Shown: positions 4,787 through 45,110, counted from the stretch's first letter. The stretch: 47,304 nucleotides of DNA from an uncultured Planctomycetaceae bacterium (GCA_964576215.1 CAZNVM010000142.1:1-47304), one strand, 5' to 3'. Numbers and translations are program-made. Notes: a model not told the origin generated them from the letters alone.

Positions 4787-5038
4787 AATTACGAATTACG
4801 AATTACTTGTACTCAAACCGTAAACAGATGGTAACTCAAAACAGTAGAGGAAATAGGAAATAGGGTAAAAAAAGTCTCTCCTATTTCCTATTTCCAATTT
4901 CCGATTTCCTTAATTTTCAACACTTTTTCCGATTTCATAACCAATCCGTTTACACTATGAGCTTGTAAATTACGAATTACGAATTGCGAATTACGGGCTT
5001 ATGTCCCGGTTCGTAATTCGTAATTCGTAATTCGTAAT
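4787..5038. repeat. composite intergenic repeat: AATTACG heptamer run, module X, GGAAATA hairpin, module Y, AATTACG/CGTAATT hairpin
   Basis: Read directly: aattacg x3 (4787-4806); module X 4807-4845; hairpin ggaaataggaaatagg...cctatttcctatttcc (4846-4895); module Y 4910-4965; hairpin aattacgaattacgaattgcgaattacgg...ccggttcgtaattcgtaattcgtaattcgtaat (4967-5038). Confidence 0.9.
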
Positions 5039-5280
5039 CATTTCGCTTCGACTGCCTTGGTGATATGTTCGACGACCTGGCCGACGGTGGTGATGTTTTG
5101 TGCGTCTTCTTCGACGATGTCGATGTCGAACTCGTCCTCAAACGCGATCATCAGCTCGGCAATGTCGAGCGAATCCGCTCCGAGATCGTTGGCAATGTCC
5201 GTCTTGTCCGTCACCGATTCCTTGTTGACACCAAGTTGATCGGCAATAATACTGGTAACTCTTTCTTGAATGGAAGCCAT
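5038..5280 (-). CDS. acpP: acyl carrier protein
   Basis: 80-aa ORF with the phosphopantetheine attachment motif LGADSLD. Lies between fabG and fabF. Confidence 0.95.
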   Translation of the reverse strand: MASIQERVTSIIADQLGVNKESVTDKTDIANDLGADSLDIAELMIAFEDEFDIDIVEEDAQNITTVGQVVEHITKAVEAK

Positions 5281-5288
5281 AGTTTTTT

Positions 5289-5378
5289 AAATGAGAAATG
5301 AGAAATGAAAAATGAGAAAGTCGGAAATGAGAAAAGAGAAAAATAATTTCTCATTTCTCATTTCACATTTCTCATTTA
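5289..5378. repeat. heptamer-repeat hairpin (GAGAAAT units)
   Basis: aaatgagaaatgagaaatgaaaaatgagaaag ... atttctcatttctcatttcacatttctcattt. The right arm overlaps the fabG stop codon (5376-5378). Confidence 0.9.
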
Positions 5379-6125
5379 AACTGTGAGTCCTCCGTCGACG
5401 ACCAACGTTTGGCCGGTGATGAAGGATGCCTGTTCGCTTGCGAGAAACAAGACGGCGTTGGCGACGTCAATCGGTTGACCGAGCCGTCCGACGGGCGTTT
5501 TGTCTTTCGCTCCCGCCAAAATCAGCGGGTCAAGTTTTGCGGTCATGTCCGTCTCAATAAAGCCGGGCGCAACCGCATTGACGGTGATGTTCCGGTTCGC
5601 CAGTTCCAGGGCGACCGTTTTCGTAAAAGCGATCAAACCCGCTTTCGAGGCACAATAATTCGCCTGGCCCCGATTGCCGATCAGTCCGCTCACGCTGGAA
5701 ATGTTGATGATTCGACCGTATTTCGCTTTCCGCATCGGCTCGGTCAAAGCCCGGGTCATCAGGAACGTTCCCCGCAAATTGACGGCGATCACGCTGTCCC
5801 ACTGCTCGTCGGTCATACGCCGCAAAAGCATATCCTGGGTGACACCGGCGTTGTTGACGAGGATATCGACCTTTTGAAATTTCTCCAAAATCTCCTTAAC
5901 CGTTTTTTCAACGGCGTCCGTAATCGTGATATTGACGGGAAACGGTTCCGCATCGCCGCCGCTGGAGCGGATGCCATCGACAACTTGCGCAAGCAGTTCG
6001 ACATTGGTGCCAATACAGGCCACCTTCGCCCCGCGTGTGGCCAGACATTGAGCAATGGAAAGTCCAATCCCCCGGGTTGCCCCGGTCACAACGGCCGTCC
6101 GGCCAGTTAGGTCTACTTGTAACAT
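5376..6125 (-). CDS. fabG: 3-oxoacyl-ACP reductase
   Basis: 249-aa SDR with TGATRGIG cofactor motif and YxxxK (YCASKAG). Located in the fab cluster. Confidence 0.95.
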
Positions 6126-6134
6126 CTTTATTTT

Positions 6135-6229
6135 AAATGAAAAATGAAAAATAAAAAATGAAAAATAGGGAAAAGGAACATGAAAAAAATCGTTTACGCA
6201 AGATATTTTTCATTTTTTATTTTTCATTT
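6135..6229. repeat. heptamer-repeat hairpin (TGAAAAA units)
   Basis: aaatgaaaaatgaaaaataaaaaatgaaaaatagg ... atatttttcattttttatttttcattt. The loop contains cgtttacg. Confidence 0.9.
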
Positions 6230-6235
6230 GTTTGA

Positions 6236-6472
6236 TTATCTGCTTTCAAGGTAGAGCGTATCGGGACAAAAATCCTGGCCATCGGGCCATTCGACGGTGC
6301 CGGACACAGGGCGAACTTTCGCAAAGTACACCGGATCGCCCAGCGGCTTGAAAAAATCGTACCGAAAGTGCGGCTTCGCATCAAAAAACCGCACCTCTCC
6401 GTTCTCAAAAGTCAATCTTAACACAAAATTTTCCAGCGGCTCCACTTCGCAAACAGCCGGATTCATTTGCAT
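6236..6472 (-). CDS. DUF2442-like small protein
   Basis: 78-aa ORF. The pattern (...L.L.F.NGE...FD........F..L.D...F..V......V.WP.G.D..PD.LY) matches my recollection of DUF2442. Confidence 0.65.
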   Translation of the reverse strand: MQMNPAVCEVEPLENFVLRLTFENGEVRFFDAKPHFRYDFFKPLGDPVYFAKVRPVSGTVEWPDGQDFCPDTLYLESR

Positions 6473-6498
6473 TTTTGGCTTTGTTCTTTTCAGCTTAC

Positions 6499-6810
6499 CT
6501 ATTCTATTTCACGAAAAAATTTATGGGAAAGTTGTCTGGCCGCATGAACGACGGCAACAACCTGAATTTCGTTTGTTTTTTTAAGGAAACGGTAAATAAT
6601 CCGGTAATTGAAAACATGAATTTCACGATATCGCTTGGCTTTCATTTCCGGGATAAAAGCACCAATTTCGGGAAAATCCAATAATCGGCGTACTGTCCTT
6701 AAAATCTCAGCGACAACTCGTCGCGATTGAAAAGTGGAATTCTGGGCAATGTATTCTCGTATTTCCCTGAGGTGTATTCGAAAAGTTTGAGTGAAATACA
6801 CTTTGATCAC
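6499..6810 (-). CDS. type II toxin, ParE/RelE family
   Basis: 103-aa ORF with ParE-like layout (...IREYIAQNS ... FPEIG ... YREIHVFNYRIIYR ... VVAVVHAAR). GTG start 2 nt after the stop of the upstream small ORF. Confidence 0.75.
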   Translation of the reverse strand: MIKVYFTQTFRIHLREIREYIAQNSTFQSRRVVAEILRTVRRLLDFPEIGAFIPEMKAKRYREIHVFNYRIIYRFLKKTNEIQVVAVVHAARQLSHKFFREIE

Positions 6811-6812
6811 TT

Positions 6813-7064
6813 CTAAAACTCCCCCAAAAACTCTCTTTCTATCTCTTCAAGGGAAACAAATCGTCCGTTTTCAATATCTTCTTCTCCTTTGGCAATTTCA
6901 GTCAAAACGTCAATGTGGTACTGAATCTGTTCCCATGTAGCGTCGTCCGGTAGTCGATTGACGAGGGACTTGACCAAACCTTTCGGGGACTCTACACCTG
7001 TTCGAGGTTTTACGAATGGCTTGGAATCACGCTTGATTTTAGGTTTTGTCAGAGTGGTACTCAT
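6813..7064 (-). CDS. putative type II antitoxin partnered with ParE-like toxin
   Basis: 83-aa ORF immediately upstream of the toxin and nearly abutting it. The family is not recognised with certainty. Confidence 0.55.
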   Translation of the reverse strand: MSTTLTKPKIKRDSKPFVKPRTGVESPKGLVKSLVNRLPDDATWEQIQYHIDVLTEIAKGEEDIENGRFVSLEEIEREFLGEF

Positions 7065-7075
7065 TATTCTTATTC

Positions 7076-7984
7076 TTAAATATCAACGCCTTGACAATCC
7101 ACTTTACGCTCAATCCGTTTGAGCAGTCCCCGGAGGACTCTTCCGGGGCCGATTTCGAAAAATTGGTCGAATTCCCGCTCCAGAAGGTATCGCATGGACT
7201 TTTCCCACTGGACCGGCTGGAGGATTTGCTTCATGAGGATTTGCCGGATTTCGTCAGGGGCCGTATGCGGTTGAGCGTCCACGTTGCTAATCACCGGGAT
7301 TCTTGGCGGCTGTATGGTGATCGCGTCCAGTGCTTCGGCGAGTTTGTCGACCGCCGGCTGCATCAGCGGCGTATGAAACGCCCCGGCGACGGCAAGCGGT
7401 AAGGCCTTCATCGCTCCCGCCGGTCGGGCAAGTTCGGCGACTCGTTCGCAGGCTTCGTTGGTGCCGGAAACGACAATATTGCCCGGACAAAGGATATTGG
7501 CGACCTGCAAAACGCCGGTTCCTCTCGCTTTTTCGCAAAGTTCTTCGACCTGCGGCAGTTCGAGACCAAGGATACTGACCATGCCGCTGGGAACGGCGTC
7601 GGATGCTTCCTGCATCGCTTGGCCCCGCTTTTGGACGAGGCGGAGACCGTCCTCAAACCGGATCGCCCCGGAAAAAACCAGAGCGGTGTATTCGCCGAGA
7701 CTCAAACCGGCGGCGGCTTGGCAATTTTGGAACTTTTGCGGCTCCTGCTCTTTCAAGATTTCCAGGGAAGCGATGCTGACCAGAAAAATCGCCGGTTGGC
7801 TGTGAATTGTGGAATCGAGTTCCTCAGCTGGCCCTTCAAAGCAGAGCCGGGCAATGTCGTAACCAAGCAGATCGTTGGCCTGTTCGAACAGGGCCTTGAC
7901 GGCGGAGCGGGACTGAAAGATTCCGCGTCCCATTCCCACGGTTTGCGCACCCTGACCGGCAAACAAAAAGGCGACCTTACCCAT
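7076..7984 (-). CDS. fabD: malonyl-CoA:ACP transacylase
   Basis: 302-aa ORF with FLFAGQGAQ N-terminus, GLSLGEY active-site serine motif and AFHTPLM. Confidence 0.95.
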   Translation of the reverse strand: MGKVAFLFAGQGAQTVGMGRGIFQSRSAVKALFEQANDLLGYDIARLCFEGPAEELDSTIHSQPAIFLVSIASLEILKEQEPQKFQNCQAAAGLSLGEYTALVFSGAIRFEDGLRLVQKRGQAMQEASDAVPSGMVSILGLELPQVEELCEKARGTGVLQVANILCPGNIVVSGTNEACERVAELARPAGAMKALPLAVAGAFHTPLMQPAVDKLAEALDAITIQPPRIPVISNVDAQPHTAPDEIRQILMKQILQPVQWEKSMRYLLEREFDQFFEIGPGRVLRGLLKRIERKVDCQGVDI

Positions 7985-8049
7985 TGTTTTGAAAAATTGG
8001 AATATACGGTATGACGAGAGTATTCTTCATCCCTGAAGAGTCGGTTAGT

Positions 8050-8226
8050 TTAGTCCATTTCCACGACCTCACGTCCCATGTAGGTGCCGCACTTGGGGCA
8101 GATGACATGGGTGGGGATAGCCGTATTACACTCGGAACAAATCGTGCGTTCGACCGGTTTTTTATGATCGTGCGCCCTCCGGGAACCGGATCTCGCGTTG
8201 CTGTGTTTACGTTTGGGGACCGCCAT
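8050..8226 (-). CDS. rpmF: 50S ribosomal protein L32
   Basis: Hand translation of the minus strand gives MAVPKRKHSNARSGSRRAHDHKKPVERTICSECNTAIPTHVICPKCGTYMGREVVEMD* (58 aa). This is below the track cutoff. It has the canonical MAVPKRK start and a CxxC...CxxC zinc ribbon, and sits upstream of fabD. Confidence 0.9.
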   Translation of the reverse strand: MAVPKRKHSNARSGSRRAHDHKKPVERTICSECNTAIPTHVICPKCGTYMGREVVEMD

Positions 8227-8351
8227 GATAGGAAAGGTTCGTAAGTCTAAAGGGAACTTAATTGAAATATTGGGCGTAAGTGTATCCTTTCTATCGGGAA
8301 AGTCAACGGGGAATTTGAGGAAAATGACAAAATTTTAAGAAATGTCAAATT

Positions 8352-8452
8352 GAGGGTAGAGGATAGAGAACAGAGGATAGAGGTTTAGATGACTATCCTC
8401 TATCCTCTACCCTCTATCCTCTACCCTCTATCCTCTACCCTCTATCCTCTAC
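8352..8452. repeat. heptamer-repeat hairpin (CCTCTAT/CCTCTAC units)
   Basis: gagggtagaggatagagaacagaggatagagg ... tatcctctatcctctaccctctatcctctaccctctatcctctaccctctatcctcta. The right arm is longer than the left. The last unit supplies the TAG stop of the 8449-8946 gene. Confidence 0.9.
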
Positions 8453-8946
8453 ATCGCCGATTCCAGATTCGTGTCAAAACGCACGAGGATCAAATTCCAG
8501 GTGCTGTTGGAACGCGGCGAGCGGTAAAATGTGAATACCCATGACACGGGAGCCTTATCGTGTTTCGTCAGGTACTTCAAGAGTATTACATCTCGCCCGA
8601 CCGGTTTTGCTCCGATTTTTTCGCAACCGTGCAGTTGACCGATTTCCGAACTGGAAAGTTCCATAAATCTTGTGCTCATGTTGTCAACCGCACTGGTCGA
8701 AGTTCTCGGTGTCGAAGAATCTTCCTGAAAAATTTCTTCAAACACCGCCGTCGTTTTCGCCAGGGTGCCGGCTTGTTCCAAATCGCGGAAGAATGTTTCC
8801 ACCCGTCGATCCAGCAACTCTTCCGTACTGGAAACCGTCGATTGCTGAGCGCGAAGTTGCCCAAAAGGAACCAAAAAACGATTCCCCAAAATTGCCAAAA
8901 AAATGGAGAAAACAACGAACAGGAAAATAGAGGATTGTTTTTTCAT
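8449..8946 (-). CDS. hypothetical membrane-anchored or secreted protein
   Basis: The track ORF 8449-9063 begins inside the GATAAGT repeat array (ITYHLSL x4). The plausible start is the ATG at 8946 (MKKQSSIFLFVVFSIFLAILG..., a signal or TM segment). Confidence 0.6.
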   Translation of the reverse strand: MKKQSSIFLFVVFSIFLAILGNRFLVPFGQLRAQQSTVSSTEELLDRRVETFFRDLEQAGTLAKTTAVFEEIFQEDSSTPRTSTSAVDNMSTRFMELSSSEIGQLHGCEKIGAKPVGRDVILLKYLTKHDKAPVSWVFTFYRSPRSNSTWNLILVRFDTNLESAM

Positions 8947-8957
8947 TATGGAAAACA

Positions 8958-9062
8958 GGTGATAAGTGATAAGGGATAAGTGATAAGTGATAAGTGATAA
9001 GTGATAAGTGATAAGTGATAAGTGATAAGTGATAAAAACACTTATCACCTTATCACTTATCA
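8958..9062. repeat. asymmetric heptamer-repeat hairpin (GATAAGT, about 11 units left, about 3 units right)
   Basis: ggtgataagtgataagggataagt(gataagt)n...gataaaaaca cttatcaccttatcacttatca. Confidence 0.9.
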
Positions 9063-9069
9063 TTTTTTT

Positions 9070-10650
9070 TTACGCTTCTTCAAGTACCGTAAAACCGATG
9101 GCGTCGGCCAATTCGAAGATTTCCTTCTTCAGATCGCCGTAAACCGTAACACGGTGCCAACCCCATTGGTCCCATTCGGAGAACAGTTTTTCAAAATCAC
9201 CGGACACTTCCGCACAGATTTTCGTGCGGCAGGCACGGTCTTCGTAAGAGTTGGCGACGGCAACCGCCTGGTGGAACAGAATCCGCTTGCCGATCATGTC
9301 GAACTCAATCGTCGTCGTCATGTAACCGGTCGGTGCCAGGGATCGAAGGCTGGCCCCTTGCCGATCTTCCGAGTGCGTCAAAATTTCGTAACTGTTGGTC
9401 GGACCGTCCGGCCCAAACATCTTGGTCGAAGCGACACAATGGGCGTAGATGATCTGCCGCGTCGCCACGTCCATGACCGGATCGGAAATGAAGCCGGGCC
9501 GCCCCTGGGTCATTTTCGTCAAGACGGCCATCGTCAGGGCGGAACGAATATCGCACTCGCAACCGCCGACCAGGGCCATGTTGCACAGTTCAAAGAAGCC
9601 CAGGCACGGGTAAGCGAAAATGTGACCGCCGTAAAAACCGCCAAGACAGTTCACCGTGATCCCCATCGCCCCATGCTCGTCGAGAAGGGCTTTTTCGGCA
9701 AGGAACATCGCCGCTGATTTGAAAAGTTCCTCGTCGGTGATCCCATTCTCGATTGTTACCGCTTCTTTTTTCCAACGGTCAACGATCTTTTGGGCTTCCG
9801 TTTTTTCCGCCATCGCTTTGTCCCAGGCGGCGTTCAAGTCGGCAAACGGCAGTTCGACAATGTCCATGCCGAATACCTCTTTGGCGGCACCGGCGTACTG
9901 GTGCCACGGCTGCCCGATGGTAAGGATTTTGACCCCTTTAAGTTCTTCCAGCAGTTTTTCCGTCGAAAGGCAATTCACCTTGTCCTCGACGATTTTCAAC
10001 TCTTTGTTGTACGGTTTGGTTCGTTCCTTGCGGACATTTTCGACGGCGGCGACGAATTCCTTCGGCGTTCCCCCTTTGGCAATGACTTCAAAACAGCGGG
10101 CCGCTTCGAGAATATCGCTGAACTGGGACGACGCGATGAAACTGGCGTTTTCCGATTTTGCCCGAAGGAGTTGGGCGGAGTAAACCAAAAAACCACCGCT
10201 TCCGGCGTAGGAAAAATCGCAGTAGAGTGTCGGCTTGCCCGTGGCGGCGACGGGCTGAATCACCGGATTCCAACAGTTCATTTGGAAAACAATGTACCCG
10301 TGAACTTGGTCGCCGTCTTCTGCGAGAATCTGGTTGGCGGCGTCTGCACCGTTGGCAAGCGAAGAGACAAACTCGACCTCGGGCAGGACCTTTTTCAGAC
10401 CGCTCATGTAATCGTCCATGACCGGACGGAAATCAAATCCGATGTTCGGCCAGTCGGGCCTGTTTTGGACATCGGCGTGAAGCGAGAAGAACACGCGGAT
10501 TTTCATTTTTTTTCCGGTTTCTTGGGCGAAAACGGGCTTGGCAGGTGAAACGGCCGTAACTCCGGCGGCAGCGGCAAGGGCACCGGCGGCGACAAATTGA
10601 CGACGGGAAAGACCACAACAGACGCAGCCGGACTGATGTTCATGCGACAT
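9070..10650 (-). CDS. Tat-signal protein of unknown function (possibly sugar-isomerase-like fold)
   Basis: 526-aa ORF. The N-terminus has the SRRQFVAAGALAAAAG twin-arginine motif. The central CECD and GG-rich segments are vaguely reminiscent of the FucI/AraA superfamily, which is an inference only. Confidence 0.5.
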   Translation of the reverse strand: MSHEHQSGCVCCGLSRRQFVAAGALAAAAGVTAVSPAKPVFAQETGKKMKIRVFFSLHADVQNRPDWPNIGFDFRPVMDDYMSGLKKVLPEVEFVSSLANGADAANQILAEDGDQVHGYIVFQMNCWNPVIQPVAATGKPTLYCDFSYAGSGGFLVYSAQLLRAKSENASFIASSQFSDILEAARCFEVIAKGGTPKEFVAAVENVRKERTKPYNKELKIVEDKVNCLSTEKLLEELKGVKILTIGQPWHQYAGAAKEVFGMDIVELPFADLNAAWDKAMAEKTEAQKIVDRWKKEAVTIENGITDEELFKSAAMFLAEKALLDEHGAMGITVNCLGGFYGGHIFAYPCLGFFELCNMALVGGCECDIRSALTMAVLTKMTQGRPGFISDPVMDVATRQIIYAHCVASTKMFGPDGPTNSYEILTHSEDRQGASLRSLAPTGYMTTTIEFDMIGKRILFHQAVAVANSYEDRACRTKICAEVSGDFEKLFSEWDQWGWHRVTVYGDLKKEIFELADAIGFTVLEEA

Positions 10651-10755: not shown

Positions 10756-10862
10756 AACCCAATCAGAACCACGCACAATCAGAGCCGCGCACGGAGTAAG
10801 CGGTGCCCCCGGTGGTAGCGTGAAAACCGCTTACTCCGTGCGCGGCTCTGATTGTACGCGGT
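10756..10862. repeat. palindromic element copy 1 (30-bp perfect stem, 21-nt loop)
   Basis: acaatcagagccgcgcacggagtaagcggt (10775-10804), loop gcccccggtggtagcgtgaaa, accgcttactccgtgcgcggctctgattgt (10826-10855). A degenerate caatcagaacc unit lies upstream. Confidence 0.9.
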
Positions 10863-10873
10863 TGGAATTTCTT

Positions 10874-12361
10874 TTACGATTGCGGTTCGGAAGCGGCACG
10901 GGCCAACTCTTCGTAAAAATCCAAATATTGTCGTGCGCTGCGGGTCCAAGACCAATCCAATTTCATGCAGGTCAACATGATTTGACGCCAAATCCCGGGG
11001 CGGTCACAAAAACAATGCAATGCCCGCCAAAGAGTGAGATTCAATTCGTGCGCCGACTCCAAAACGAAACTGAAGCCGCTCGCCGTTCCGTCGGCAATCG
11101 TCGCTTCATTGGTGTCTACGACCGTGTCGGCCAAACCGCCTGTCTCGTGAACAATCGGGATCGTTCCGTAAAGCTGGCTGTACATCTGGTTTAGTCCGCA
11201 CGGTTCGTATCGGCTCGGCATGAGAAACATGTCGCTGCCTGCCTCGATTTTGTGTGCCAGTTCATTGGAAAACGTCAACCGAACCGCAACGTTCCGGGGA
11301 AATTCCGCTTGCAACTGCGCAAGTTGATTTTCAATGTAGGAATCACCGGAACCCAAAAAACAGTATTGAACATTGTGATTACGGATCCAATCCGGTGCGG
11401 TTTCCAAAATCAAATCGATCCCTTTTTGCGAGGCAAGCCGTCCGACAACCCCCAAAAGCGGCGTCTCGGGGTTTTCGTCCAAGCCCATCTCTTTTTGAAG
11501 CGCAGCCTTGCAAATCGGTTTCTTTTCGAACACGTCTTCGGTCGTAAACGGAGCGGCGATAAACGGATCCGTCCCGGGATTCCACGCTTCCGTACAAATA
11601 CCGTTAAGGATTCCCCGCAATGAGTCTTTGCGATACTGTAACACCGATTCCATCGCACAGCCGTATTCCGACGTCTGAATTTCCTGGGCGTATCGCGGAC
11701 TGACCGTGCTGATCCCATCGGCGAACACCACGCCGGTTTTGAGCATGTTCAGCTTGCCGTGAAACTCCATCTTGTCGAACGTAAAGTATTTCCAATCAAT
11801 CCCGGTCAGCGGCATATCCCAATGCCAAAAGATTCCCTGATATGCAAGATTGTGGATCGTGTGAAGCGTTGCGATTTTCGAGTAGAGCGGCTTGTCTCGG
11901 TAAAAAATCTTCAAATAGGCCGGAACCAGACCGGTCTGCCAGTCGTTCGTGTGAAGTACGTCGATCTCCCACTGCATCGCGTCGATCAATTCCAACACGG
12001 CTCGGGAAAAGAAAACGAACCGTTCGCAATTGTCGCCGTAATCCTGCTCATTTTCGTTGTAAAGTCCTGCCCGGTCAAAATAGTGATCGTTTTGGATCAG
12101 GATAACTTGAACGTCGGAATTGGGAATACGGCTTTCCAAGAGATTGCCTTTGACGACCCTGTCATTGACCGGGACCGCGATTTCGGTGTGCAAATCGGTA
12201 ATCGGCTGCCCGGATTGAAACGCTTGCCGATAAGCCGGAAGAACGACGCGAACGGTGTTCCCCAACTTGGCAAGAGCTTTGGGGAGTGAATTGCTCACAT
12301 CGCCCAAACCGCCGGTTTTGGCAAACGGAACCGTTTCGCTGGCTGCATAAAGGATATTCAT
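10874..12361 (-). CDS. glgA: glycogen synthase (ADP-glucose type)
   Basis: The canonical N-terminus MNILYAASETVPFAKTGGLGDV begins at the ATG at 12361. The track ORF extends to 12487, but that extension has no GlgA counterpart. The C-terminal GGLADTV motif is present. Confidence 0.9.
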   Translation of the reverse strand: MNILYAASETVPFAKTGGLGDVSNSLPKALAKLGNTVRVVLPAYRQAFQSGQPITDLHTEIAVPVNDRVVKGNLLESRIPNSDVQVILIQNDHYFDRAGLYNENEQDYGDNCERFVFFSRAVLELIDAMQWEIDVLHTNDWQTGLVPAYLKIFYRDKPLYSKIATLHTIHNLAYQGIFWHWDMPLTGIDWKYFTFDKMEFHGKLNMLKTGVVFADGISTVSPRYAQEIQTSEYGCAMESVLQYRKDSLRGILNGICTEAWNPGTDPFIAAPFTTEDVFEKKPICKAALQKEMGLDENPETPLLGVVGRLASQKGIDLILETAPDWIRNHNVQYCFLGSGDSYIENQLAQLQAEFPRNVAVRLTFSNELAHKIEAGSDMFLMPSRYEPCGLNQMYSQLYGTIPIVHETGGLADTVVDTNEATIADGTASGFSFVLESAHELNLTLWRALHCFCDRPGIWRQIMLTCMKLDWSWTRSARQYLDFYEELARAASEPQS

Positions 12362-17000: not shown

Positions 17001-17395
17001 CACTATCGCAGGCGAGAATTTCGTTTCAGGATATTCACACCACGAAGCTCGGTGGTGTCAGCGGGTACTTGAGCGAACTGCGGAGCGGAGCCGGAAAAGA
17101 CCTGTTTACGGACACGAAAGCGGCGTATAAAATCGTTACGGAAGCGATTGAGGAGATTTCATTCCTTCGCGGCATGATCGGGACGTTTCAAAAGAATCAG
17201 GTCGAAATCGGCATGGAACAGATGGAAGACGTTCTGGAAGCGTCGGTTTCCGCCGACAGTTTGATTCGTGACACCGATTTCGCGGTTTCCAGTTCGCAGT
17301 TGGCGAGACAACAGGTTCTTCTCCAGGCCGGGATCAGCGTGCTAAGTTATCCGAACGAAATGAACCGGCAGTTGCTTGGATTGTTGCAACGGTAA
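14009..17395 (+). CDS. giant flagellin-family protein (1128 aa)
   Basis: N-terminal flagellin domain (LSSGLQIHSGRDDPSGFVTSSILRSEI) and C-terminal flagellin domain (LIRDTDFAVSSSQLARQQVLLQAGISVLSYPNEMNRQLLGLLQR) flank a central insert of about 850 aa. Confidence 0.85.
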   Translation: MSFPINNFNLKSNYGSLMGQLNLSRNESGISMLIRNLSSGLQIHSGRDDPSGFVTSSILRSEIVSLKQAITNSSRASSVCSVADSALAQVNVILIEMQRMTVEAANTGVNNETILRSLQLQMDSSLDSINRIANTTKFMGQNLLDGSLNFVTYGLESDKIVHYQINQADFGLMTEKEVSVKVLQNAQPAVLFYQYGAINEKTTLEIGGKLGYEVFAFDREATVDQIAQAINMMTSATGVAATVMAQASPGNVYASSYGKDNDVIITASKGGYLEGNIVVRYTAPKEGNGQMSLNVTPSNGNDPTVIEVVLQTEEWQSAIYHYNGENDGIPHNEFNWKSKIAGTAYNDIQFTINNVHGTDEPVGLTYNFDTKPYAIDIRVDYDAADPQSPQNTTVNDLKSWLQNDPVLSTYFEIEDALSSNGTGPIVPTTIFTQPQIGVNGGKVLSTAEQVVKLLNTSPLLLDEKGNGTITASIPYGQTGLGTVAPFAEYAYYGTVEQNNQLQFLGPAGSPNIRFMCEPGTPLSVDYNRFPPVYGKSTATVQGTSANTTFSLRALSPGSQYDGLGIIFQDGKNESALLDPAKNAIVITVDFSGRNSDPARQEFNMADLRSLIENSPTLGSKFEFVPQVAFDAKNPPAFASSDYIGVHTKMSEFSGGLLDPGKLVVHLETDVNGNVLTTAADLVRFFDNPAGEEAKAILNQLGISVSLVDPTNGATVNCGTDMSRVGLGPLEPTYWPICPGDDNPQIADIRFTSFYGDTRPQYPQATIVARDGINSVFQITGRKADGSLEGVSVLVVDDFTLGNDPNAKVAYDLISKQFTISVNPYNPPTARDVVDLINKTETVNMLFTASIPQWIPGTTIIPNGAGWVRSGDGGTLKVEQTGPALGIPMIGNSDHGSVGLAIYSVDYGSNAFVSVKAIQGTNFPVIDSCGNYSERTKGVDINALINNMQAVGNGQIASMSTSDLDVSLWIDPTLLPGSVFGFRITGGGALMQLGPEANSLSQARISFQDIHTTKLGGVSGYLSELRSGAGKDLFTDTKAAYKIVTEAIEEISFLRGMIGTFQKNQVEIGMEQMEDVLEASVSADSLIRDTDFAVSSSQLARQQVLLQAGISVLSYPNEMNRQLLGLLQR

Positions 17396-17556
17396 AATAC
17401 CGTTTACAAACAGTAATGGGCTTGGTTTGGATTGAGCCTTTTCTCACGAAAACGTTGAGGATCGTGAATAATTTGTTCATAGTGCTCTTCCGTGCCAGGA
17501 AGATTTATGGTACGCTGTCCATAATGAGCACGCGACGTAGCGGGCTTGTTATACAC

Positions 17557-17648
17557 CCGATTTCCTATTTCCTCTACTGTTTTGAGTTACCATTTGTTTA
17601 CGATTTGAGTTCATTTCGTAATTCGTAATTCGTAATTCGTAATTAAAA
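17557..17648. repeat. repeat block: GGAAATA units, module X (reverse orientation), CGTAATT x4
   Basis: ccgatttcctatttcctct + actgttttgagttaccatttgtttacgatttgagttca (17576-17613) + tttcgtaattcgtaattcgtaattcgtaatt. This is the reverse complement of 4787-4866 at roughly 90 percent identity. Confidence 0.9.
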
Positions 17649-18674
17649 ATGAGTCCACACAGCATACTTCGGGTTCGGGGAGGGCAACCGATTTCGGGCG
17701 GTCCTTCGTTGGAAACGGAGGATTCGCCCGGGGTACCGGAATCATCATACACGGCAAACGTTCAGGAACGAATCCTTCACGCCGGACAACCGCCGTTTCC
17801 GGGTGATGCCAAGCTCGTATTTCGTCCGCCGCCGCTGAATTTTACGGTTTCCCAAAACGACCCCGACGAGAACGAACCGGATTTGGTGGTAGCGGAACCG
17901 AAAAACGTTGCCGTTCCTCCATTTTTTGATCCGGACGATTATCAAGTGTGCGCAAACGGTGTCACAAAATCGTACATTATGGGTAAAGTCGTCGTTCCGG
18001 TTCTCAAGGGGGTCAATCTTGGCATCCGGAAAGGGGAATTTCTCGCCATCGTCGGACAAAGCGGGTCGGGAAAAAGTACGCTTTTGCACTTGTTGGGCAC
18101 GCTTGACACCCCTGACCAGGGAACGATCCATTTCGACGGAGAGCGGATCGACAATATCGCAAGCGGACAAAGGGATATTTTGCGCAACCGATTTATCGGG
18201 ATGATATTTCAGTTTTATCACCTTTTGCCGGAGTTGTCGGTTTTGGAAAACGTCCTGTCGCCGTTGATGATCCGCGATTCGACGTGGCGTTATTTCTGCA
18301 ACCGCCCCAAGCATTACAAAAAAGGTCGGGAACTTCTGGACGCCGTCGGACTGTCGCATCGGCTCACGCACAAGCCCAATGAACTTTCCGGCGGTGAAAT
18401 GCAACGGGCCGCAATCGCCAGGGCACTGATTTCCGAGCCGCAAATTCTTCTGGCCGACGAACCGACCGGAAACCTTGACGCCAAGTCGGCACGGGAAATC
18501 CTGCAATTGATCCGCGAGTTGAATCAAAAGCGAAACCTGACAATCGTGATGGTAACACACGATCTTTCCATCGCTCAGAAAGCGGACCGCATGGTTACCA
18601 TCTATGACGGACAAGTAACTCACTCAAAGTGTAAACGAAATGGTGTTGAAACGGAAAAAAGTGTTGAAATTTAA
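17649..18674 (+). CDS. ABC transporter ATP-binding protein (LolD/MacB/FtsE-like) with N-terminal extension
   Basis: Walker A GQSGSGKST, signature LSGGEMQR and Walker B LLADEPTGNLD. About 100 Pro-rich residues precede the ATPase domain. The start is uncertain, as internal GTG codons are possible. Confidence 0.85.
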   Translation: MSPHSILRVRGGQPISGGPSLETEDSPGVPESSYTANVQERILHAGQPPFPGDAKLVFRPPPLNFTVSQNDPDENEPDLVVAEPKNVAVPPFFDPDDYQVCANGVTKSYIMGKVVVPVLKGVNLGIRKGEFLAIVGQSGSGKSTLLHLLGTLDTPDQGTIHFDGERIDNIASGQRDILRNRFIGMIFQFYHLLPELSVLENVLSPLMIRDSTWRYFCNRPKHYKKGRELLDAVGLSHRLTHKPNELSGGEMQRAAIARALISEPQILLADEPTGNLDAKSAREILQLIRELNQKRNLTIVMVTHDLSIAQKADRMVTIYDGQVTHSKCKRNGVETEKSVEI

Positions 18675-18853
18675 GGGCATCGGGAATAGAATTATGACTT
18701 GTTCGACTCTCTTCCATCGACGAGGAAAAGGTGGAAAATACTACTGTTTTTCCTATGCCCTATTCCCTATTCCCGATTCCCGATGCCCTATGCTCGATGC
18801 CCGATGCCCTTTGACTGTTTTGAGTTACCATTTGTTTACGGTTTAAGTTTCAA
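18655..18853. repeat. repeat block: partial module Y (reverse), GGGCAT-type heptamer hairpin, module X (reverse)
   Basis: gtgttgaaatttaagggcatcgggaataga ... cctatgccctattccctattcccgattcccgatgccctatgctcgatgcccgatgccct, then actgttttgagttaccatttgtttacggtttaagt (18814-18848). It overlaps the stop codons of both flanking genes. Confidence 0.85.
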
Positions 18854-20025: not shown

Positions 20026-20114
20026 TGTGACACCGTTTGAAGAAAGGAAAAACAGGAACGAGTTGAACACACCGCGACAGTCTATCCGTTTTGAAATCGG
20101 ATTTCAAGCCCCAC

Positions 20115-20276
20115 GCACAATCAGAGCCGCGTACAATCAGAGCCGCGCACAATCAGAGCCGCGCACGGAGTAAGCGGTTTTCACGTTGCCACCGGGGTCA
20201 CCGCTTACTCTGTGCGCGGCTCTGATTGGGTTCACGGTTGGCGAAAATGTTGCCTCATTGGCGTTGAATAGTATAC
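20115..20276. repeat. palindromic element copy 2 (inverted loop orientation, left-arm 15-mer triplicated) plus conserved right extension
   Basis: (c/a)acaatcagagccgcg(t/c) x3, then stem acaatcagagccgcgcacggagtaagcgg / ccgcttactctgtgcgcggctctgattg, then gggttcacggttggcgaaaatgttgcctcattggcgttgaatagtatac. Confidence 0.9.
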
Positions 20277-22847: not shown

Positions 22848-22870
22848 AAATTTCTCATTTCTCATTTCAA
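22848..22870. repeat. single arm of ATTTCTC heptamer repeat
   Basis: aaatttctcatttctcatttcaa in the rsmA/lysA divergent spacer, preceded by the GC hairpin cgccgcac-agg-gtgcggcg (22826-22845). Confidence 0.7.
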
Positions 22871-22876
22871 AAGACT

Positions 22877-24112: not shown

Positions 24113-24194
24113 CAACGGTATAATCGAGTTTTTGTTTTATACCCTACAACGTCAATAAATTGACATTTTGCTTGAACTCGTCAACGAACCACAA

Positions 24195-28327: not shown

Positions 28328-28413
28328 TCGGCAACCGGCAAACGGCGGAAATCCGAACTTTCGCTGTCAACCGTCTGCCACTTATCGTTTCATTTTTCAT
28401 TTTTCATTTACTC

Positions 28414-33438: not shown

Positions 33439-33639
33439 ATGAAATTAAGAATTAACGGAAAAGAGCGAACGGTTCACGACGGAGCAACGCTTGCCGAATT
33501 GCTTGAACAACTCGAACTTGCCGGAAAATACGTTGCCGTCGAGCGAAACAAGGAGGTCGTCCCCTTCCGAACTTATGCCGAAACGGTTCTCGCCGAAGGA
33601 GATTGCCTCGAAATCGTCACCCTGGTCGGCGGAGGATAA
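33439..33639 (+). CDS. thiS: ThiS/MoaD-type sulfur-carrier (ubiquitin-fold) protein
   Basis: 66-aa ORF, MKLRINGKERTV...LEIVTLVGGG, with the C-terminal GG. It starts 30 nt after the preceding gene. Confidence 0.85.
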   Translation: MKLRINGKERTVHDGATLAELLEQLELAGKYVAVERNKEVVPFRTYAETVLAEGDCLEIVTLVGGG

Positions 33640-33776
33640 TTAAGGGCATCGGGAATCGGAAATCGGAAATTAGAGGAAGCTTTATCACCTATGCCCTATG
33701 CCCAATGCCCTATGCCCTATGCCCTTAAATTTCAACACCTTTTCCGGCTTCATAACCAATCCGTTTACACTTTGAG
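33640..33776. repeat. GGGCAT-type heptamer hairpin plus module Y
   Basis: ttaagggcatcgggaatcggaaatcggaaatt ... cctatgccctatgcccaatgccctatgccctatgcccttaa, then module Y ttaaatttcaacaccttttccggcttcataaccaatccgtttacactttgag (33725-33776, about 90 percent identical to 4910-4961). Confidence 0.9.
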
Positions 33777-33785
33777 TAATTTAAA

Positions 33786-34946: not shown

Positions 34947-36424
34947 TTACTTCCGCCGTCGAGCAACGAAACCTGCGCCGATTGCGCCGAGGCCGAGCAC
35001 CAGTAGCGTTGCCGGTTCCGGGGTCGTGCTGGGATCGTCGCCGAGGTACGAAAGCGTCAACACGTTACCGTTCCACGTCCATTCAAAACCGGTCTCCTCG
35101 AAACTGGACATGTTAAAATCGAAATTCCCCCAGCCGCTCGTTTTGCCTGTGGCGAGGAACAAATCGGACATATCGTACACTTGACTCCATCCGTCCAGCG
35201 GTGTCACCGAATCGCCCCAGTACAAATCGAGCGCGGCCTTGTTGCCGAACGTGAGATTGCCGAGAACGGAAATGATACCAGAGGTGAAATCTTCGAGACC
35301 GAGGCCAACGTACATCGTGCCGTTGAACGTAACTCCCTGTGCCGCCGCGAGTTCCAGTACGCCGCCGCTGTTGATTCCGACGTTACCGTTCACCGTGATC
35401 GTGTTCGCTTGAATTTTATTCGTGCTGGCATCGGTCAAAAGCGTTGCCCATTGGCCAAGCGTGAAAGTACCAACGTCGTTAGCGGCACCGTAGACAACGT
35501 TGCCTCTCAACTGTAGTTCGCCGTAACCGACGGTGGTGTTTAGAACTTGACTGTAACGATCAACGTCTCGAGTATAGTCGGAACCATCGAACACGACTCT
35601 GCCGGTGTCCGTTGCCCGATTGTTGATTTGTACATAGTTTTGACCCATTACAATCGGATCATAGAAGTAAATGCTCTGTCCTTCTCCAGCATTAAATACT
35701 GTATTGTAGTATCCAGCAAATTCCGCGTGGATGGCATTGGCTTTTTCATTAGCGGTGCCGACTCTATCTCTGTTTCCTCGGAATGTAATATCGCCGTTTG
35801 TTGCCATGAGGACGACTTGTCCTTCATCGGTGTAAATCGCCCCGCCTAGGCCGTTTGTCGAATTATTGGTAAACGTGTTTGTTCCGCCCGAAAGTACAAC
35901 GTGGTAACTTCCAATCGCCCCGCCACCGTACCGCGCTGAATTGCCGGTAAATGTGTTCGTCCCGCCGGAAAGAGTGAGATAGGTGCTGCTTGCAATCGCC
36001 CCGCCCATGCCGTTTGCCGAGTTATTGGTAAACGTGTTTGTTCCGCCCGAAAGTACAACATTGTTACCGCAAAACACCCCGCCATCATCATTCCATTGAA
36101 AATTTCTGAACTCTAGTGAATTGGAGTCCAACGTAATGTTTCCTGAACTGTACATAATGTTGGAATTAGAAGCGGCAGGGCGGATGACTCCCGAACCTTT
36201 GAAGGTAAGTGAGGCAACACCAAACCTACGGGTCAGCGAATTGTCATCGCCGTTCAAGATGATGGTGTCGCCACTTTGGAGAACTCCTGTTGCCGTGCGG
36301 AGAGCTTCAAGATTTGCGTAAGAACCACCGGGGCCGACGGTGTATTCGGCGGCTGTTAAGATCGGGGGGGGGGGGAAAATAGGCAAGCTGCGGCGATTGC
36401 CAGCAGAAGTCGTTTGGTTGTCAT
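34947..36424 (-). CDS. PEP-CTERM-anchored protein with Pmp-type (GGAI / FxxN) repeats; reading frame interrupted at a G12 tract
   Basis: Body ORF 34947-36386 has FTNNSANGMGGAI, FTGNSARYGGGAI and FTNNSTNGLGGAI, with C-terminal PEPATLLVLGLGAIGAGFVARRRK. A signal-peptide ORF (ATG at 36424, MTTKRLLLAIAAACLFSPPP) runs into the homopolymer in another frame. One extra G would fuse the two. Confidence 0.8.
36364..36375. repeat. homopolymeric G12 (C12 on coding strand) tract
   Basis: Counted directly: atc + 12 g + aaaat. Confidence 0.95.
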
Positions 36425-36531: not shown

Positions 36532-36664
36532 TCTCTGTTTTCGGGCTGGCGGTGCTCTTTTCCCTCGAAAACGCTTCGAGGACACACCACCGTTAATTCT
36601 ATTTTAATCGGAACCGAAAAAAAATCAAGGGAAAAATCGGAAAAATTTCGCTAATTGGCGGAAC

Positions 36665-36760
36665 GCACAATCAGAGCCATACAATCAGAGCCGCGCACGC
36701 AGTAAGCGGTGACCCCGGTGGTAACGTGAAAACCGCTTACTGCGTGCGCGGCTCTGATTG
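36665..36760. repeat. palindromic element copy 4
   Basis: cacaatcagagccat + acaatcagagccgcgcacGCagtaagcggt (36681-36710), loop gaccccggtggtaacgtgaaa, accgcttactGCgtgcgcggctctgattg (36732-36760). Confidence 0.9.
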
Positions 36761-36819
36761 GGCGCGGTTCGTTGAGGTTCACGTAATCGATCAGACGCGA
36801 CCGCCGGGGCGTCGGTTGC

Positions 36820-38877: not shown

Positions 38878-39061
38878 CGCCGGAGGGCGATCAAACACGC
38901 CGGACCGTTGAAGCGGTGAGCCGGGAAAACAAGGGACAGTGGGCGGATTTCCTTCCGTAATGCGCATAACGAAATATCGGTTCTTCCTGGAAAAAACAAA
39001 CGTCCCTCCATTCTACCTTATTTTTGGACTTTCGCTAGAGACAGATTCTGTCCGTTCAGAA

Positions 39062-39143
39062 GGTAACGTGAAAACCGCTTACTGCGTGCGCGGCTCTGAT
39101 TGTACGCGGCTCTGATTGTACGCGGCTCTGATTGGGTTCACGG
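39062..39143. repeat. palindromic element copy 5 (half element: loop plus right arm, terminal 15-mer triplicated)
   Basis: ggtaacgtgaaa accgcttactgcgtgcgcggctctgattg tacgcggctctgattg tacgcggctctgattg ggttcacgg. No left arm is present. A further degenerate unit lies at about 39180-39200. Confidence 0.85.
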
Positions 39144-42731: not shown

Positions 42732-42760
42732 ACGGCGTGGCCGTTTTTTTTGGAAAAACC

Positions 42761-43594: not shown

Positions 43595-43596
43595 TT

Positions 43597-43679
43597 GAAT
43601 TACGAGTCAATTACGAATTACGAATTACGGAATAGATGTCAGATTGCAGGATTCTGCCGTCTGCTGTCTGCCGTCTGCC
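43597..43679. repeat. heptamer runs (AATTACG units, then CTGCCGT/CTGCTGT units)
   Basis: gaattacgagtcaattacgaattacgaattacgg ... ctgccgtctgctgtctgccgtctgcc. Confidence 0.85.
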
Positions 43680-43682
43680 TCC

Positions 43683-44066
43683 TTACCCCACCATACAACG
43701 GAACACCGCTGTCAATGTCCAGTGCATTTCGCCTTGGCGTTTGTGGTGTCTCGAGGTGTAACGAAAAATGAGCATTCCGCCTGCTTCCATTGGGATTCGA
43801 ACTCCGTTCAAGCCGCAGATGAGCTGTTCAAGCAGTTCCGTTGCGGCGTCATAGCAACAGTGATGCAGTTCGAGTCTGCACGTAAACACGGCTGGGGGAA
43901 ACGGTCCGGTCGTTGGCCAGGACGCTTTGCTTTCGTCCTGAAAAACCTTGACAAACGGCATGTCCGCGTCGGCCTCAGCCCCGGCAAAAACGCTTGAATA
44001 TGGTACAATATCATAAAGCGAAGCGTGTGACGCCCAATAGTTCAACAGGAGTTCTTCAAATGACAT
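43683..44066 (-). CDS. phage neck or tail-terminator-like protein (DUF3168-like, inference)
   Basis: The start is taken at the ATG at 44066 (MSFEELLLNYWASHASLYDIVPYSSVFAG...MPFVKV...). The 36 N-terminal codons of the track ORF are translated repeat units. Confidence 0.55.
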   Translation of the reverse strand: MSFEELLLNYWASHASLYDIVPYSSVFAGAEADADMPFVKVFQDESKASWPTTGPFPPAVFTCRLELHHCCYDAATELLEQLICGLNGVRIPMEAGGMLIFRYTSRHHKRQGEMHWTLTAVFRCMVG

Positions 44067-44069
44067 GGA

Positions 44070-44162
44070 TTCAGGGGATAAGTGATAAGTAAAGACGGCA
44101 GACAGAAGACGGCAGTTTGCAGGAACTCTGCTACCTGCCGTCTGCTGTCTGCCGACTGCCGA
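44070..44162. repeat. heptamer-repeat hairpin (GATAAGT units plus GACGGCA/GACAGAA units)
   Basis: ggggataagtgataagt aaagacggcagacagaagacggcag tttgcaggaactctgctac ctgccgtctgctgtctgccgactgccgac. Confidence 0.9.
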
Positions 44163-44751
44163 CTTCATTGACAACTTTTAGCTCGGTCCAAAATCGATTG
44201 TCGTATGGTGTCATTACGCCTTCGATTCGCCAATAGGCACCATCAGGAAACCGGAGTTGATCACCGGTACGAAAATCAACCGGCGTCCGAACCGCAATCC
44301 GCCGTGACTCGACGCCGTCCGAAATTATCGTTTCGGAAAATTTTGCCGGAATCCCCGAGCGGACGAGAAACCAACGGTATTCGAGCGTGCCGGATTTTGC
44401 CGGTTCGCCCCGTTTGCGGAACAGGTCGACGTACTCGTCCAGTCCGAACGTGGCGTCAAATCGATAGGAAACGCACCGCACCGTTCCGGTCAATTCGGTG
44501 TATTCGATTTTCGTAACGATCCAGCGGTTCGCTTTCGCGTCGAGGATTTCATCTCCGGTGTTGACCTCGGCTTGCGGAAGGTGCCACGTCGTCCAATGGT
44601 AGGGTATCAATCGGTTTTCGCGACGTTTATCCTGCTCCTTCGTCCTTCGGGCAAGCGCACCGGTGATACCATCGTATCGATCCGAGCCGGGCCGATGAAG
44701 GACGACGTCTTCGACGCCGTCCGCAATTTCGAGCGTATTGTCGTTAAACAT
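44131..44751 (-). CDS. phage head-tail joining (head-closure)-like protein, apparent tandem duplication (inference)
   Basis: 206-aa ORF. Both halves end in a GD.(I/L)....(R/Y)W.I..(I/V) pattern (GDEILDAKANRWIVTKIE and GDQLRFPDGAYWRIEGV). The last 10 codons and the stop lie in the repeat arm. Confidence 0.55.
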   Translation of the reverse strand: MFNDNTLEIADGVEDVVLHRPGSDRYDGITGALARRTKEQDKRRENRLIPYHWTTWHLPQAEVNTGDEILDAKANRWIVTKIEYTELTGTVRCVSYRFDATFGLDEYVDLFRKRGEPAKSGTLEYRWFLVRSGIPAKFSETIISDGVESRRIAVRTPVDFRTGDQLRFPDGAYWRIEGVMTPYDNRFWTELKVVNEVGSRQTADGR

Positions 44752-44772
44752 TGCAATTTATGTGTCAAAATT

Positions 44773-44805
44773 CTGTTGTCTGCCGTCTGTCATCTGTCAT
44801 CTGAC
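44773..44805. repeat. single arm of CTGCCGT/CTGTCAT heptamer repeat
   Basis: ctgttgtctgccgtctgtcatctgtcatctgac. It overlaps the stop region of the 72-aa gene. Confidence 0.75.
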
Positions 44806-45015
44806 GAATCCTTGCGAAATTGCGCAACCGGGATTTTCGGCATTGATCATCCGGTCACACCACGAAACCGTTTCCCGAAGCGTCTTCAAATAATCGTTCC
44901 AGGAAACCGACTGTCCGTCGATATCATACGACGGTTTCGGCTCGGCGGTGATCTCGGCAATTCTCGCAAGTGTTTGCGAACGAATGGTTTGTAGTTGGTC
45001 TAATGAGTCAGTCAT
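44797..45015 (-). CDS. small phage-associated protein
   Basis: 72-aa ORF directly after the capsid gene. It is helical and charged (LDQLQTIRSQTLARIAEI...SYDIDGQSVSWNDYLKTLRE), a pattern often seen in small head-completion proteins. Confidence 0.5.
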   Translation of the reverse strand: MTDSLDQLQTIRSQTLARIAEITAEPKPSYDIDGQSVSWNDYLKTLRETVSWCDRMINAENPGCAISQGFVR

Positions 45016-45018
45016 ATA

Positions 45019-45110
45019 AAAATGAGAAATGAGAAATAGGGAATGAGAAATGTGAAAAGGAAGTGGAAATCGAAAAGTCGTTTCTCATTTCTCATTTCAC
45101 ATTTCTCATT
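45019..45110. repeat. heptamer-repeat hairpin (GAGAAAT units)
   Basis: aaaatgagaaatgagaaatagggaatgagaaatgtgaaaagg ... gtttctcatttctcatttcacatttctcatt. The right arm is nearly identical to the one at 5346-5377. Confidence 0.9.

Follow-up and report, generated by a model that had tools for sequence, protein, structure and literature searches.

Heptanucleotide tandem arrays in intergenic DNA of an uncultured planctomycete, part of them carried by a miniature inverted-repeat element

Tandem repeats of seven-nucleotide (nt) units are reportedly present in heterocystous cyanobacteria, in which Mazel and colleagues are said to have described in 1990 the short tandemly repeated repetitive (STRR) sequences STRR1-3, with the units CCCCAGT, TTGGTCA and CAACAGT and no known function. 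In Nostoc punctiforme, very small mobile elements located inside tandem heptamer arrays were reportedly described by Elhai and colleagues in 2008. Intergenic palindromes of another kind are the abundant repetitive extragenic palindromic (REP) sequences, including bacterial interspersed mosaic elements (BIME) and REP doublets forming hairpins (REPIN), which protect upstream mRNA inside operons of E. coli, contain no tandem heptamers, generate no target-site duplications and depend on the REP-associated tyrosine transposase RAYT. Here, a family of period-7 arrays and hairpins is analyzed that fills intergenic gaps of a 47,304-nt stretch of DNA from an uncultured Planctomycetaceae bacterium (GCA_964576215.1, CAZNVM010000142.1:1-47304; this whole stretch is referred to as the window).

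Heptamers are over-represented among long bacterial microsatellites, for which polymerase slippage has been proposed (Mrazek, 2007, as relayed in PMC4692102 and PMC4679880). The GGGNATC repeats of Xanthomonas and Nostoc are intergenic, vary in number and favor four units as well as gaps that separate aligned open reading frames (ORFs); they lie up to 50 bp after stop codons in sense or upstream of ORFs in antisense orientation, some of them being inverted (Rehm et al., 2015, PMC4692102). In marine Beggiatoaceae, some cyanobacteria and Bacteroidetes, direct repeats of TAACTGA, a unit that carries stop codons, stop a few nt ahead of start codons and have been proposed to act in translation (MacGregor, 2015, PMC4679880). 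According to a preprint, heptamer repeats lie close to start codons throughout Nostoc, and the genome of Geobacter metallireducens contains heptanucleotide elements. A preliminary description of the window, made from the sequence alone, likened its arrays to STRR sequences and was not aware of a planctomycete precedent; the analogy holds in a broad sense, and no paper linking heptanucleotide tandem repeats to planctomycetes was found.

Period-7 arrays in the window and its relatives

Tandem Repeats Finder returned about 30 period-7 rows in the window and, together with direct reading, recovered every unit and position named in the preliminary description. A scan for exact runs yielded 20 runs of period 7 (437 nt) and between zero and three for periods 4-6 and 8-13, while a tolerant scan yielded 22 period-7 arrays covering 781 nt and no arrays of periods 8-12; dinucleotide-preserving shuffles of the window lead to an expectation of 0.02-0.03 arrays. 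Almost all of this sequence is non-coding, since 726 of the 781 nt (93%) fall into the 5,436 non-coding bases that make up 11.5% of the window, and among the 31 intergenic gaps with a length of 20 nt or more, 15 contain at least one array. An enrichment of period 7 over other periods and of intergenic over coding sequence holds in the window, as does the pairing of most arrays into hairpins. The folding energies of paired arrays range from -23 to -65 kcal/mol, compared with -8 to -24 kcal/mol in shuffles.

The doubt raised earlier that the arrays might be assembly artefacts can be set aside. An ENA contig equals the window exactly over positions 1-5572, two JGI contigs and one Logan contig are each 99.7% identical to it overall, and three gaps of the fab operon (fabD-fabG-acpP-fabF) are equal base for base in all four. 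As the fab-gap arrays are reproduced in four independent assemblies, they do not result from assembly. The number of units does not vary between these 99.7%-identical strains.

Relatives identified through FabG, at 92% (loci L082 and L087) and 86% (L083 and L086) identity, carry period-7 hairpins in the fabD-fabG, fabG-acpP and acpP-fabF gaps. The units of the fab gaps are AAATGAG paired with TTTCTCA in the window and L087, AAATGAC paired with TTTGTCA in L082, together with AATTACT/AATTACG, and AATTAAG paired with TTAATTC in L083 and L086, together with GGCTGTA; in the fabG-acpP gap specifically, L087 retains the unit of the window, and AAATGAC and AATTAAG are found in L082 and in L083 and L086, respectively. 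The array trait is stable between strains and turns over between species; the variation anticipated for orthologous gaps was found in the identity of units between relatives and not in their number between strains. None of 80 FabF-anchored loci from GTDB species (best 63% identity) shows a comparable period-7 density. Present in near relatives and absent farther out, the trait represents a bloom in one narrow clade. A scan of viral contigs for (AAATGAG)3 returned nine contigs with a single array each and was uninformative.

A mobile element, probable slippage and the spread of arrays

Next to arrays, the window contains three occurrences of a 27-nt non-repetitive core. When metagenome contigs were scanned with an 18-nt part of it, 49 loci were obtained. 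Of these, 30 (282 kb, almost all from metagenome Ga0209628, GC 0.46-0.53) belong to the organism of the window or to a close relative, and period-7 arrays are present in nearly all of these 30. The 282 kb contain at least 30 full copies of a non-coding element of 144-356 nt with a common architecture: a left end CTCAAAGTGTAAACGAAATGG...GTGTTGAAATTTAA (also given as CTCAAAGTGTAAACGAAATGGTA..GTGTTGAAATTTAA); a purine arm of 3-22 heptamers of the GGGNATC type (GGGCATC, GGGAATC, GGAAATC, GGAAATT); a conserved 23-nt loop, GGAGGAAGTTTTTCACTTATCAC; a pyrimidine arm of 3-8 heptamers (CTATGCC, CGATGCC, CGATTCC); and a right end ...ACTGTTTTGAGTTACCATYTGTTTACGGTTTGAG (also given as CTTGACTGTTTTGAGTTACCATYTGTTTACGGTTTGAG). 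Its ends are imperfect terminal inverted repeats, CTCAAAGTGTAAACGAAATGGTAA and, as reverse complement, CTCAAACCGTAAACAAATGGTAA (as a pair, CTCAAAGTGTAAAC...GTTTACGGTTTGAG). Perfect 7-bp direct repeats lie exactly at the element ends in 13 of the 30 copies and at none of the control offsets; the targets thus duplicated tend towards a T in first place, an A in third and an A in last place, and the copy length equals 1 modulo 7 in 22/30. With inverted ends, a duplication of fixed length, small size and many copies, the element built from ATGCCCT and GGAAATA units is a miniature inverted-repeat transposable element (MITE). Some Ga0209628 copies additionally hold arrays of ACTTATC, the complement of GATAAGT, or of CTGCCGT.

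Both ATGCCCT and GGAAATA arrays constitute the MITE stem, and these two unit types therefore belong to one mobile sequence. The preliminary view that the arrays do not derive from one mobile sequence has to be given up for these two units, and two GAGAAAT hairpins also share descent. The MITE stem accounts for about one third of the arrays, and the remainder are free arrays (AATTACG, GAGAAAT, TGAAAAA and others) distributed across many gaps. A co-occurring transposase, for which a search had been suggested, was found neither among the window ORFs nor among ORFs between stray MITE ends at the loci examined, where only GGDEF, amidohydrolase and kinase domains were detected, and a Y1 transposase (RAYT) was not found among the window ORFs scanned. 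Neither the window nor these loci yielded a full-length element that shares the MITE ends and codes for a transposase. About 46 kb from the FabG relatives contained heptamer arrays but no recognizable MITE ends, and in that small sample arrays therefore exist without the element.

A 330-kb sample, chosen via the MITE core, comprises 163 arrays of 30 canonical unit types, with AATTACG alone present at 25 loci. Arrays change by whole 7-nt units only, the lengths of the MITE arms are exact multiples of seven and the two arms vary independently. A test for co-evolution of the arms was negative: arms of one MITE copy pair no better than arms mixed between copies (a mean difference of -0.18 kcal/mol, the own partner being better in 7 copies and worse in 11). 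In one MITE copy (locus L098), the loop sequence CACTTATCAC, a 10-nt seed, has grown to (ACTTATC)5, which indicates that any short 7-nt near-repeat can seed an array. Copy numbers returned by Tandem Repeats Finder mostly have fractional parts of 0.3-0.7. This pattern of change fits gain and loss of whole units by slippage, and not selection for a perfect stem or copying from arm to arm. The common generating or selecting mechanism postulated in the preliminary description is borne out insofar as something acts on the period, given the 30 unit types, the whole-unit changes and the array born from a 10-nt seed. Slippage would not be the only route: the GAGAAAT hairpins at 45017-45110 and 5333-5379 share descent because their variant units follow one another in an identical order, at 87% identity across 47 nt, and together with an 83-nt composite present twice at 90% identity, the odd GAGAAAT unit that they share at a corresponding place implies that duplication or mobility also spreads arrays.

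Placement at genes and possible explanations

An inverted partner lies within 250 nt of 85 of the 163 arrays, and the purine-rich arm is the 5' arm in 50 of 52 pairs, a polarity that holds in all 19 unit families, relatives included. An initial reading of this polarity as a gene-strand asymmetry was dropped: a palindrome reads equally on both strands, so the polarity is not an effect of gene strand, and strand information can only be drawn from lone arrays and individual arms. Transcripts in either direction meet the purine arm first and the U-rich arm last. For lone arrays and individual arms, a gene start lies at most 12 nt downstream of 11/25 arrays in the CGTAATT sense and of 4/13 in the CTCATTT sense, compared with 2/25 and 0/13 in the opposite sense and 1.5% for random positions. 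A stop codon is located at most 15 nt upstream of 6/25 arrays in the AATTACG sense (opposite sense 2/25) and of 4/13 in the AAATGAG sense (opposite sense 0/13), with 4% for random positions. Start codons are touched by arrays as much as stop codons and lone arrays precede starts, which corrects the earlier assignment of most copies to the 3' ends of genes.

Among 136 genes with an unambiguous start, 19 have an array within 40 nt upstream. Motifs resembling a Shine-Dalgarno (SD) site at -20 to -5 were detected for 16 of the 117 genes without an upstream array and for none of the 19 with one; the organism rarely uses SD sites. Between co-directional genes, the hairpin often begins right at the stop codon and extends to a point 6-16 nt ahead of the following start. 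For the entire acpP-fabF spacer, the minimum-free-energy structure has -89.7 kcal/mol (z -9), its outermost stem being formed by the array located at the acpP stop codon and the one that precedes the fabF start. The first and last paired base had been tried as a measure of such a stop-to-start clamp, and this measure was dropped because outgroup gaps also close at their ends; energy excess over shuffles is the only measure that separates array gaps from outgroup gaps. About 44% of the gaps in the MITE-selected sample carry an array: 49/97 co-directional, 14/40 divergent and 12/35 convergent gaps, or 22/97, 11/40 and 4/35 if only non-MITE arrays are counted.

The explanation that we favor, with moderate confidence, is that these are STRR-like slippage arrays, part of them carried by a MITE, which are filtered or co-opted at the mRNA level. 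Arrays would arise by slipped-strand mispairing with a bias towards 7-nt steps, as proposed by Mrazek (2007), and would then be spread by the MITE and by local duplication. The purine arm, which may carry AUG/GUG, GGA/GAG or SD-like motifs and stop codons (the latter in all three frames because seven is not a multiple of three), would be placed behind the upstream stop codon, and the U-rich arm, which has no AUG and no stop codon in the units examined, before the downstream start codon. Purine-first placement would work for either orientation of the flanking genes, and only such an arrangement would survive selection. The pyrimidine array would serve as an AU-rich leader without an SD site, whereas the paired stop-to-start stem would most likely adjust downstream translation, being opened by ribosomes that finish the upstream gene, and most likely protect the mRNA, probably without terminating transcription.

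Several observations weigh against this explanation. Heptamer-biased slippage is a published hypothesis and not a demonstrated mechanism, and every functional step proposed above is read from sequence. FabG relatives at 84% (L085) and 82% (L084) identity have no arrays in their fab gaps, which are ordinary spacers with an SD-like AAGGA/AAGGAG motif before acpP. Selection of the 330-kb sample through the MITE core biases its array densities, gene starts were taken from ORFs only, and the difference between gap types is not statistically significant. Lopsided free hairpins are common (e.g. 11 versus 3.3 or 8.4 versus 4.6 units), and arms that are unequal and do not co-vary speak against strong selection for the stem itself.

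A rival interpretation is purely selfish or neutral, in that a MITE and slippage-prone microsatellites would fill tolerated gaps, the orientation rules would reflect only the removal of harmful arrangements, and expression would owe nothing to the arrays. A MITE with target-site duplications and many copies, independent and unequal arms, replacement of units between species, near relatives without arrays and the presence of arrays between phage-type genes are all in line with neutrality. It is given substantial weight, though less than the favored explanation, since the same small set of units is found again and again, in one orientation and 0-12 nt from start codons, at many unrelated loci, the fab gaps retain a hairpin in five lineages despite the change of unit, and arrays are stable between strains. 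The proposal of a role in intrinsic termination, attenuation or 3' stability, with the hairpins marking transcript ends, draws on stable hairpins that begin at or in stop codons, on an A-rich 5' arm and a U-rich 3' arm with the polarity of a bidirectional terminator, and on the small GC-rich hairpins flanked by some arrays (4996-5011, upstream of 22848, and loci L098 and L105). Here, the preliminary description found little support: hairpins stand between every gene pair of the conserved fab operon, a terminator and promoter consensus scan of 4000-10000 flags no hairpin and fewer sites than in shuffles, lone arrays directly precede start codons, and non-MITE arrays have their minimum in convergent gaps and are frequent in divergent ones. 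Because of the intra-operon sites, the missing consensus match and the convergent minimum, termination as the main function is improbable.

Considerably less credit still is given to transposition footprints, according to which a transposase with a 7-bp staggered cut would repeatedly insert and excise at a preferred target, leaving one additional target copy per cycle. Its attraction lies in the identity of target-site duplication length and repeat period, and in several duplicated targets (TGAGAAA, TTACGAA, TCATTTA) that equal or resemble array units. This reading is very improbable: the 13 duplicated targets all differ, whereas AATTACG alone occupies 25 loci, the fractional copy numbers are those expected from slippage on a microhomology seed and not from entire duplicated targets, relatives that yielded no MITE ends carry arrays all the same, and the search for a transposase in window ORFs and the loci examined was negative.

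Beyond slippage and mRNA-level filtering, it is conceivable, though doubtful, that the pyrimidine heptamers at gene starts are cis-elements of a genome-wide post-transcriptional system, read by a single-strand heptamer-binding protein of the cold-shock-domain or S1 type, with the purine arm as a built-in masking partner. If so, roughly one gene in seven would have its level of translation set by the number of units, and the system would represent a case of convergence with the TAACTGA and GGGNATC repeats known from Beggiatoaceae, cyanobacteria and Xanthomonas, lineages that are said to depend little on SD pairing. Why 7-nt units dominate among long bacterial microsatellites has been an open question since the STRR description of 1990 and the Mrazek survey of 2007. 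The lineage studied here is an unusually dense and clean case, in which MITE copies that differ almost only by whole heptamers provide a natural record of the mutation process, and purine-first polarity together with start-codon placement leads to concrete, reporter-testable predictions on translation in an organism that rarely uses SD sites.

Inventory, neighboring features and known repeat systems

The host is an uncultured representative of the Pirellulales that probably falls within or close to the Thermoguttaceae; the FabG relatives at 82% identity are labelled Thermoguttaceae (a family of this order), and the FabF match at 63% identity, the best among GTDB species, is planctomycetal. On the minus strand in the left part of the window lie fabD, a toxin-antitoxin insert, fabG, acpP and fabF; other genes encode GlgA, a flagellin-like protein, an ABC ATPase and PilM. 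The arrays and elements of the window are compiled in Table 1. The left end of a MITE copy (18623-18674) forms the final approximately 52 nt of the ABC ATPase gene (17649-18674), its TAA stop included; the protein has therefore had its C-terminus replaced through this insertion.

Table 1. Heptamer arrays, hairpins and MITE copies of the window, with folding energies of arrays and of shuffles in kcal/mol
Feature	Coordinates	Strand	Context	Energy (shuffles)
(TAATTCG)3 array	4785..4808	-	ends 6 nt upstream of fabF start codon (4779); outer 3' partner of array at 5008-5040	
MITE copy, GGAAATA/CCTATTT stem variant	4812..4961	-	nested inside AATTACG array; internal arrays 4846-4866 and 4875-4910; terminal inverted repeat motifs CTCAAAnnGTAAAC inward-facing at 4812 and 4961; TACAAG flanks both sides	
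AATTACG hairpin	4967..5040	-	starts within acpP stop codon (5038-5040); small GC-containing central hairpin	-34.5 (-11.5)
GAGAAAT/TTTCTCA hairpin	5287..5377	-	occupies entire fabG-stop to acpP-start spacer; same in four assemblies	-36.8 (-8.5)
TGAAAAA/TTTTTCA hairpin	6134..6229	-	DUF2442 gene stop to fabG start	-23.6 (-8.8)
GTAGAGG/CCTCTAT hairpin	8352..8452	-	3' end of ORF 8449-8946; arms of 8.4 and 4.6 units	-65.4 (-23.7)
GATAAGT hairpin	8957..9062	-	ORF 9070-10650 stop to ATG 8946; arms of 3.3 and 11 units	
MITE right half: short CCTATTT array and right end (to 17609), then (TTCGTAA)4-5	17555..17646	+	(TTCGTAA)4-5 ends 3 nt before ABC ATPase start (17649); 90% identical to reverse complement of 4787-4866	
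MITE copy, 225 nt	18623..18847	+	pyrimidine array at 18751-18810, on minus strand a G3N4 run (G-quadruplex-type sequence motif)	
Lone (TTTCTCA)2.7 array	22848..22871	+	6 nt before putative GTG start 22877; preceded by GC-rich hairpin	
Lone (TTTTCAT)3 array	28386..28411	+	ends 3 nt before ATG 28414	
MITE-related element (family D9)	33640..33776	+	directly after stop of small thiS-like ORF; GGGCATC/GGAAATC arm, loop, CTATGCC arm; inverted left-end copy on right side	
Two unrelated arrays in one spacer, (AGACGGC)4 and (GTAATTC)3	43597..43680	-	(AGACGGC)4 after stop of ORF 43683-44066; (GTAATTC)3 before ATG 43594	
(GATAAGT)2 and CTGCCGT hairpin	44073..44164	-	right arm overlaps last codons and stop of ORF 44131-44751	-47.2 (-25.0)
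Lone CTGCCGT/CTGTCAT array	44773..44806	-	overlaps stop codon of ORF 44797-45015	
GAGAAAT hairpin (family D16)	45017..45110	-	phage-type capsid gene stop to next start codon	

A second family of intergenic palindromes is located at 10760-10878, 20102-20237, 24180-24283, 36652-36784 and 39023-39142. It features a 29-bp perfect stem, CAATCAGAGCCGCGCACGGAGTAAGCGGT ... ACCGCTTACTCCGTGCGCGGCTCTGATTG (-77 to -81 kcal/mol), additional tandem copies of the outer 16-mer on one side and, in one copy, a compensatory change from GGAG/CTCC to GCAG/CTGC in both arms; it is also present in Ga0209628 loci and not in the FabG relatives sampled. The insert between fabD and fabG (6236-7064) holds genes for a ParE toxin and a DUF2442 protein plus a small upstream ORF; fabD and fabG are adjacent in L082, L083 and L086, and L087 holds DUF4160 and DUF2442 genes at this position. 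At the right end of the window, a minus-strand gene block with phage signatures (42761-47178) includes a capsid gene (PF25209, 45114-46298) and a weak match to a cement protein (46335-46796), and heptamer hairpins are found between its genes as in housekeeping operons. The flagellin-like protein (14009-17395; 1,128 residues) combines flagellin N- and C-terminal domains with about 900 intervening residues without a Pfam match. A small ORF at 33440-33639, below the 100-residue cut-off of the ORF list, ends in ...GG-stop like a ThiS/MoaD sulfur carrier and directly precedes the MITE-related element. An 81-nt tandem repeat at 35835-36053 (2.8 copies, 69% matches) is an ordinary coding repeat in a gene (34947-36386) for a PEP-CTERM protein with a Chlamydia PMP-type repeat. 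An Rfam scan of the window at gathering thresholds returned nothing.

Both window ends (1-144 and 47165-47304) are 98.5-100% identical to ends or interiors of several Ga0209628 contigs and are multi-copy repeats at which assemblies break. Past the right end, locus L115 encodes two small ORFs without a Pfam match and is not an insertion sequence. Adjoining the left-end repeat lies a gene of the PD-(D/E)XK nuclease family (PDDEXK_3, E 4e-39) at 223-606, for which a link to the heptamer arrays is not established. Contigs of relatives stop inside heptamer arrays (L086 8118-8209, L087 5334-5419), for example in a (GAGGACA)n array of about 12 units right after the fabF stop codon. Heptamer repeats therefore fragment short-read assemblies, and they may also mislead the calling of gene starts.

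In comparison with described systems, the planctomycete arrays resemble STRR sequences in that several unrelated 7-nt units are tandemly repeated in the non-coding DNA of one genome, above chance, with a bias against coding sequence and with a copy number that differs from locus to locus and from one related genome to another. They differ in phylum and in the prevalence of inverted pairs and hairpins with strict purine-first polarity, and the STRR1-3 units themselves are absent from the unit list of the 330-kb sample. As with the TAACTGA repeats, heptamer arrays in one orientation end a few nt before start codons. TAACTGA, a unit that is absent from the same list, is a single unit with almost no inverted repeats, whereas many units and frequent hairpins characterize the planctomycete. 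Abundant intergenic palindromes are shared with REP and REPIN elements, from which the MITE is distinguished by its target-site duplications and by the absence of a RAYT gene among the window ORFs scanned. The association of small mobile elements with tandem heptamers recalls what is reported for Nostoc punctiforme, although in the planctomycete the arrays form the internal stem of the element, one copy of which is also inserted into an AATTACG array. The similarity to the GGGNATC repeats extends to sequence and position: GGGAATC and GGGCATC are the commonest units of the planctomycete sample, their purine arms contain G3N4 runs of at least four as a sequence motif (e.g. 18751-18810, minus strand), and the G-rich strand likewise follows stop codons or lies antisense upstream of ORFs. 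Intergenic location, variable number, a leaning towards gaps of aligned ORFs and the occurrence of inverted pairs are further common traits. Here, the units constitute the stem of a MITE with inverted ends and 7-bp duplications, are nearly always paired with a complementary arm and show no evident preference for four units (3-22 units). Taken together, a kind of repeat known from cyanobacteria, Xanthomonas and sulfur bacteria is extended to a new phylum, the planctomycetes, and is complemented by a MITE with a variable heptamer stem, a near-universal purine-first polarity and stems that reach from stop to start codon.

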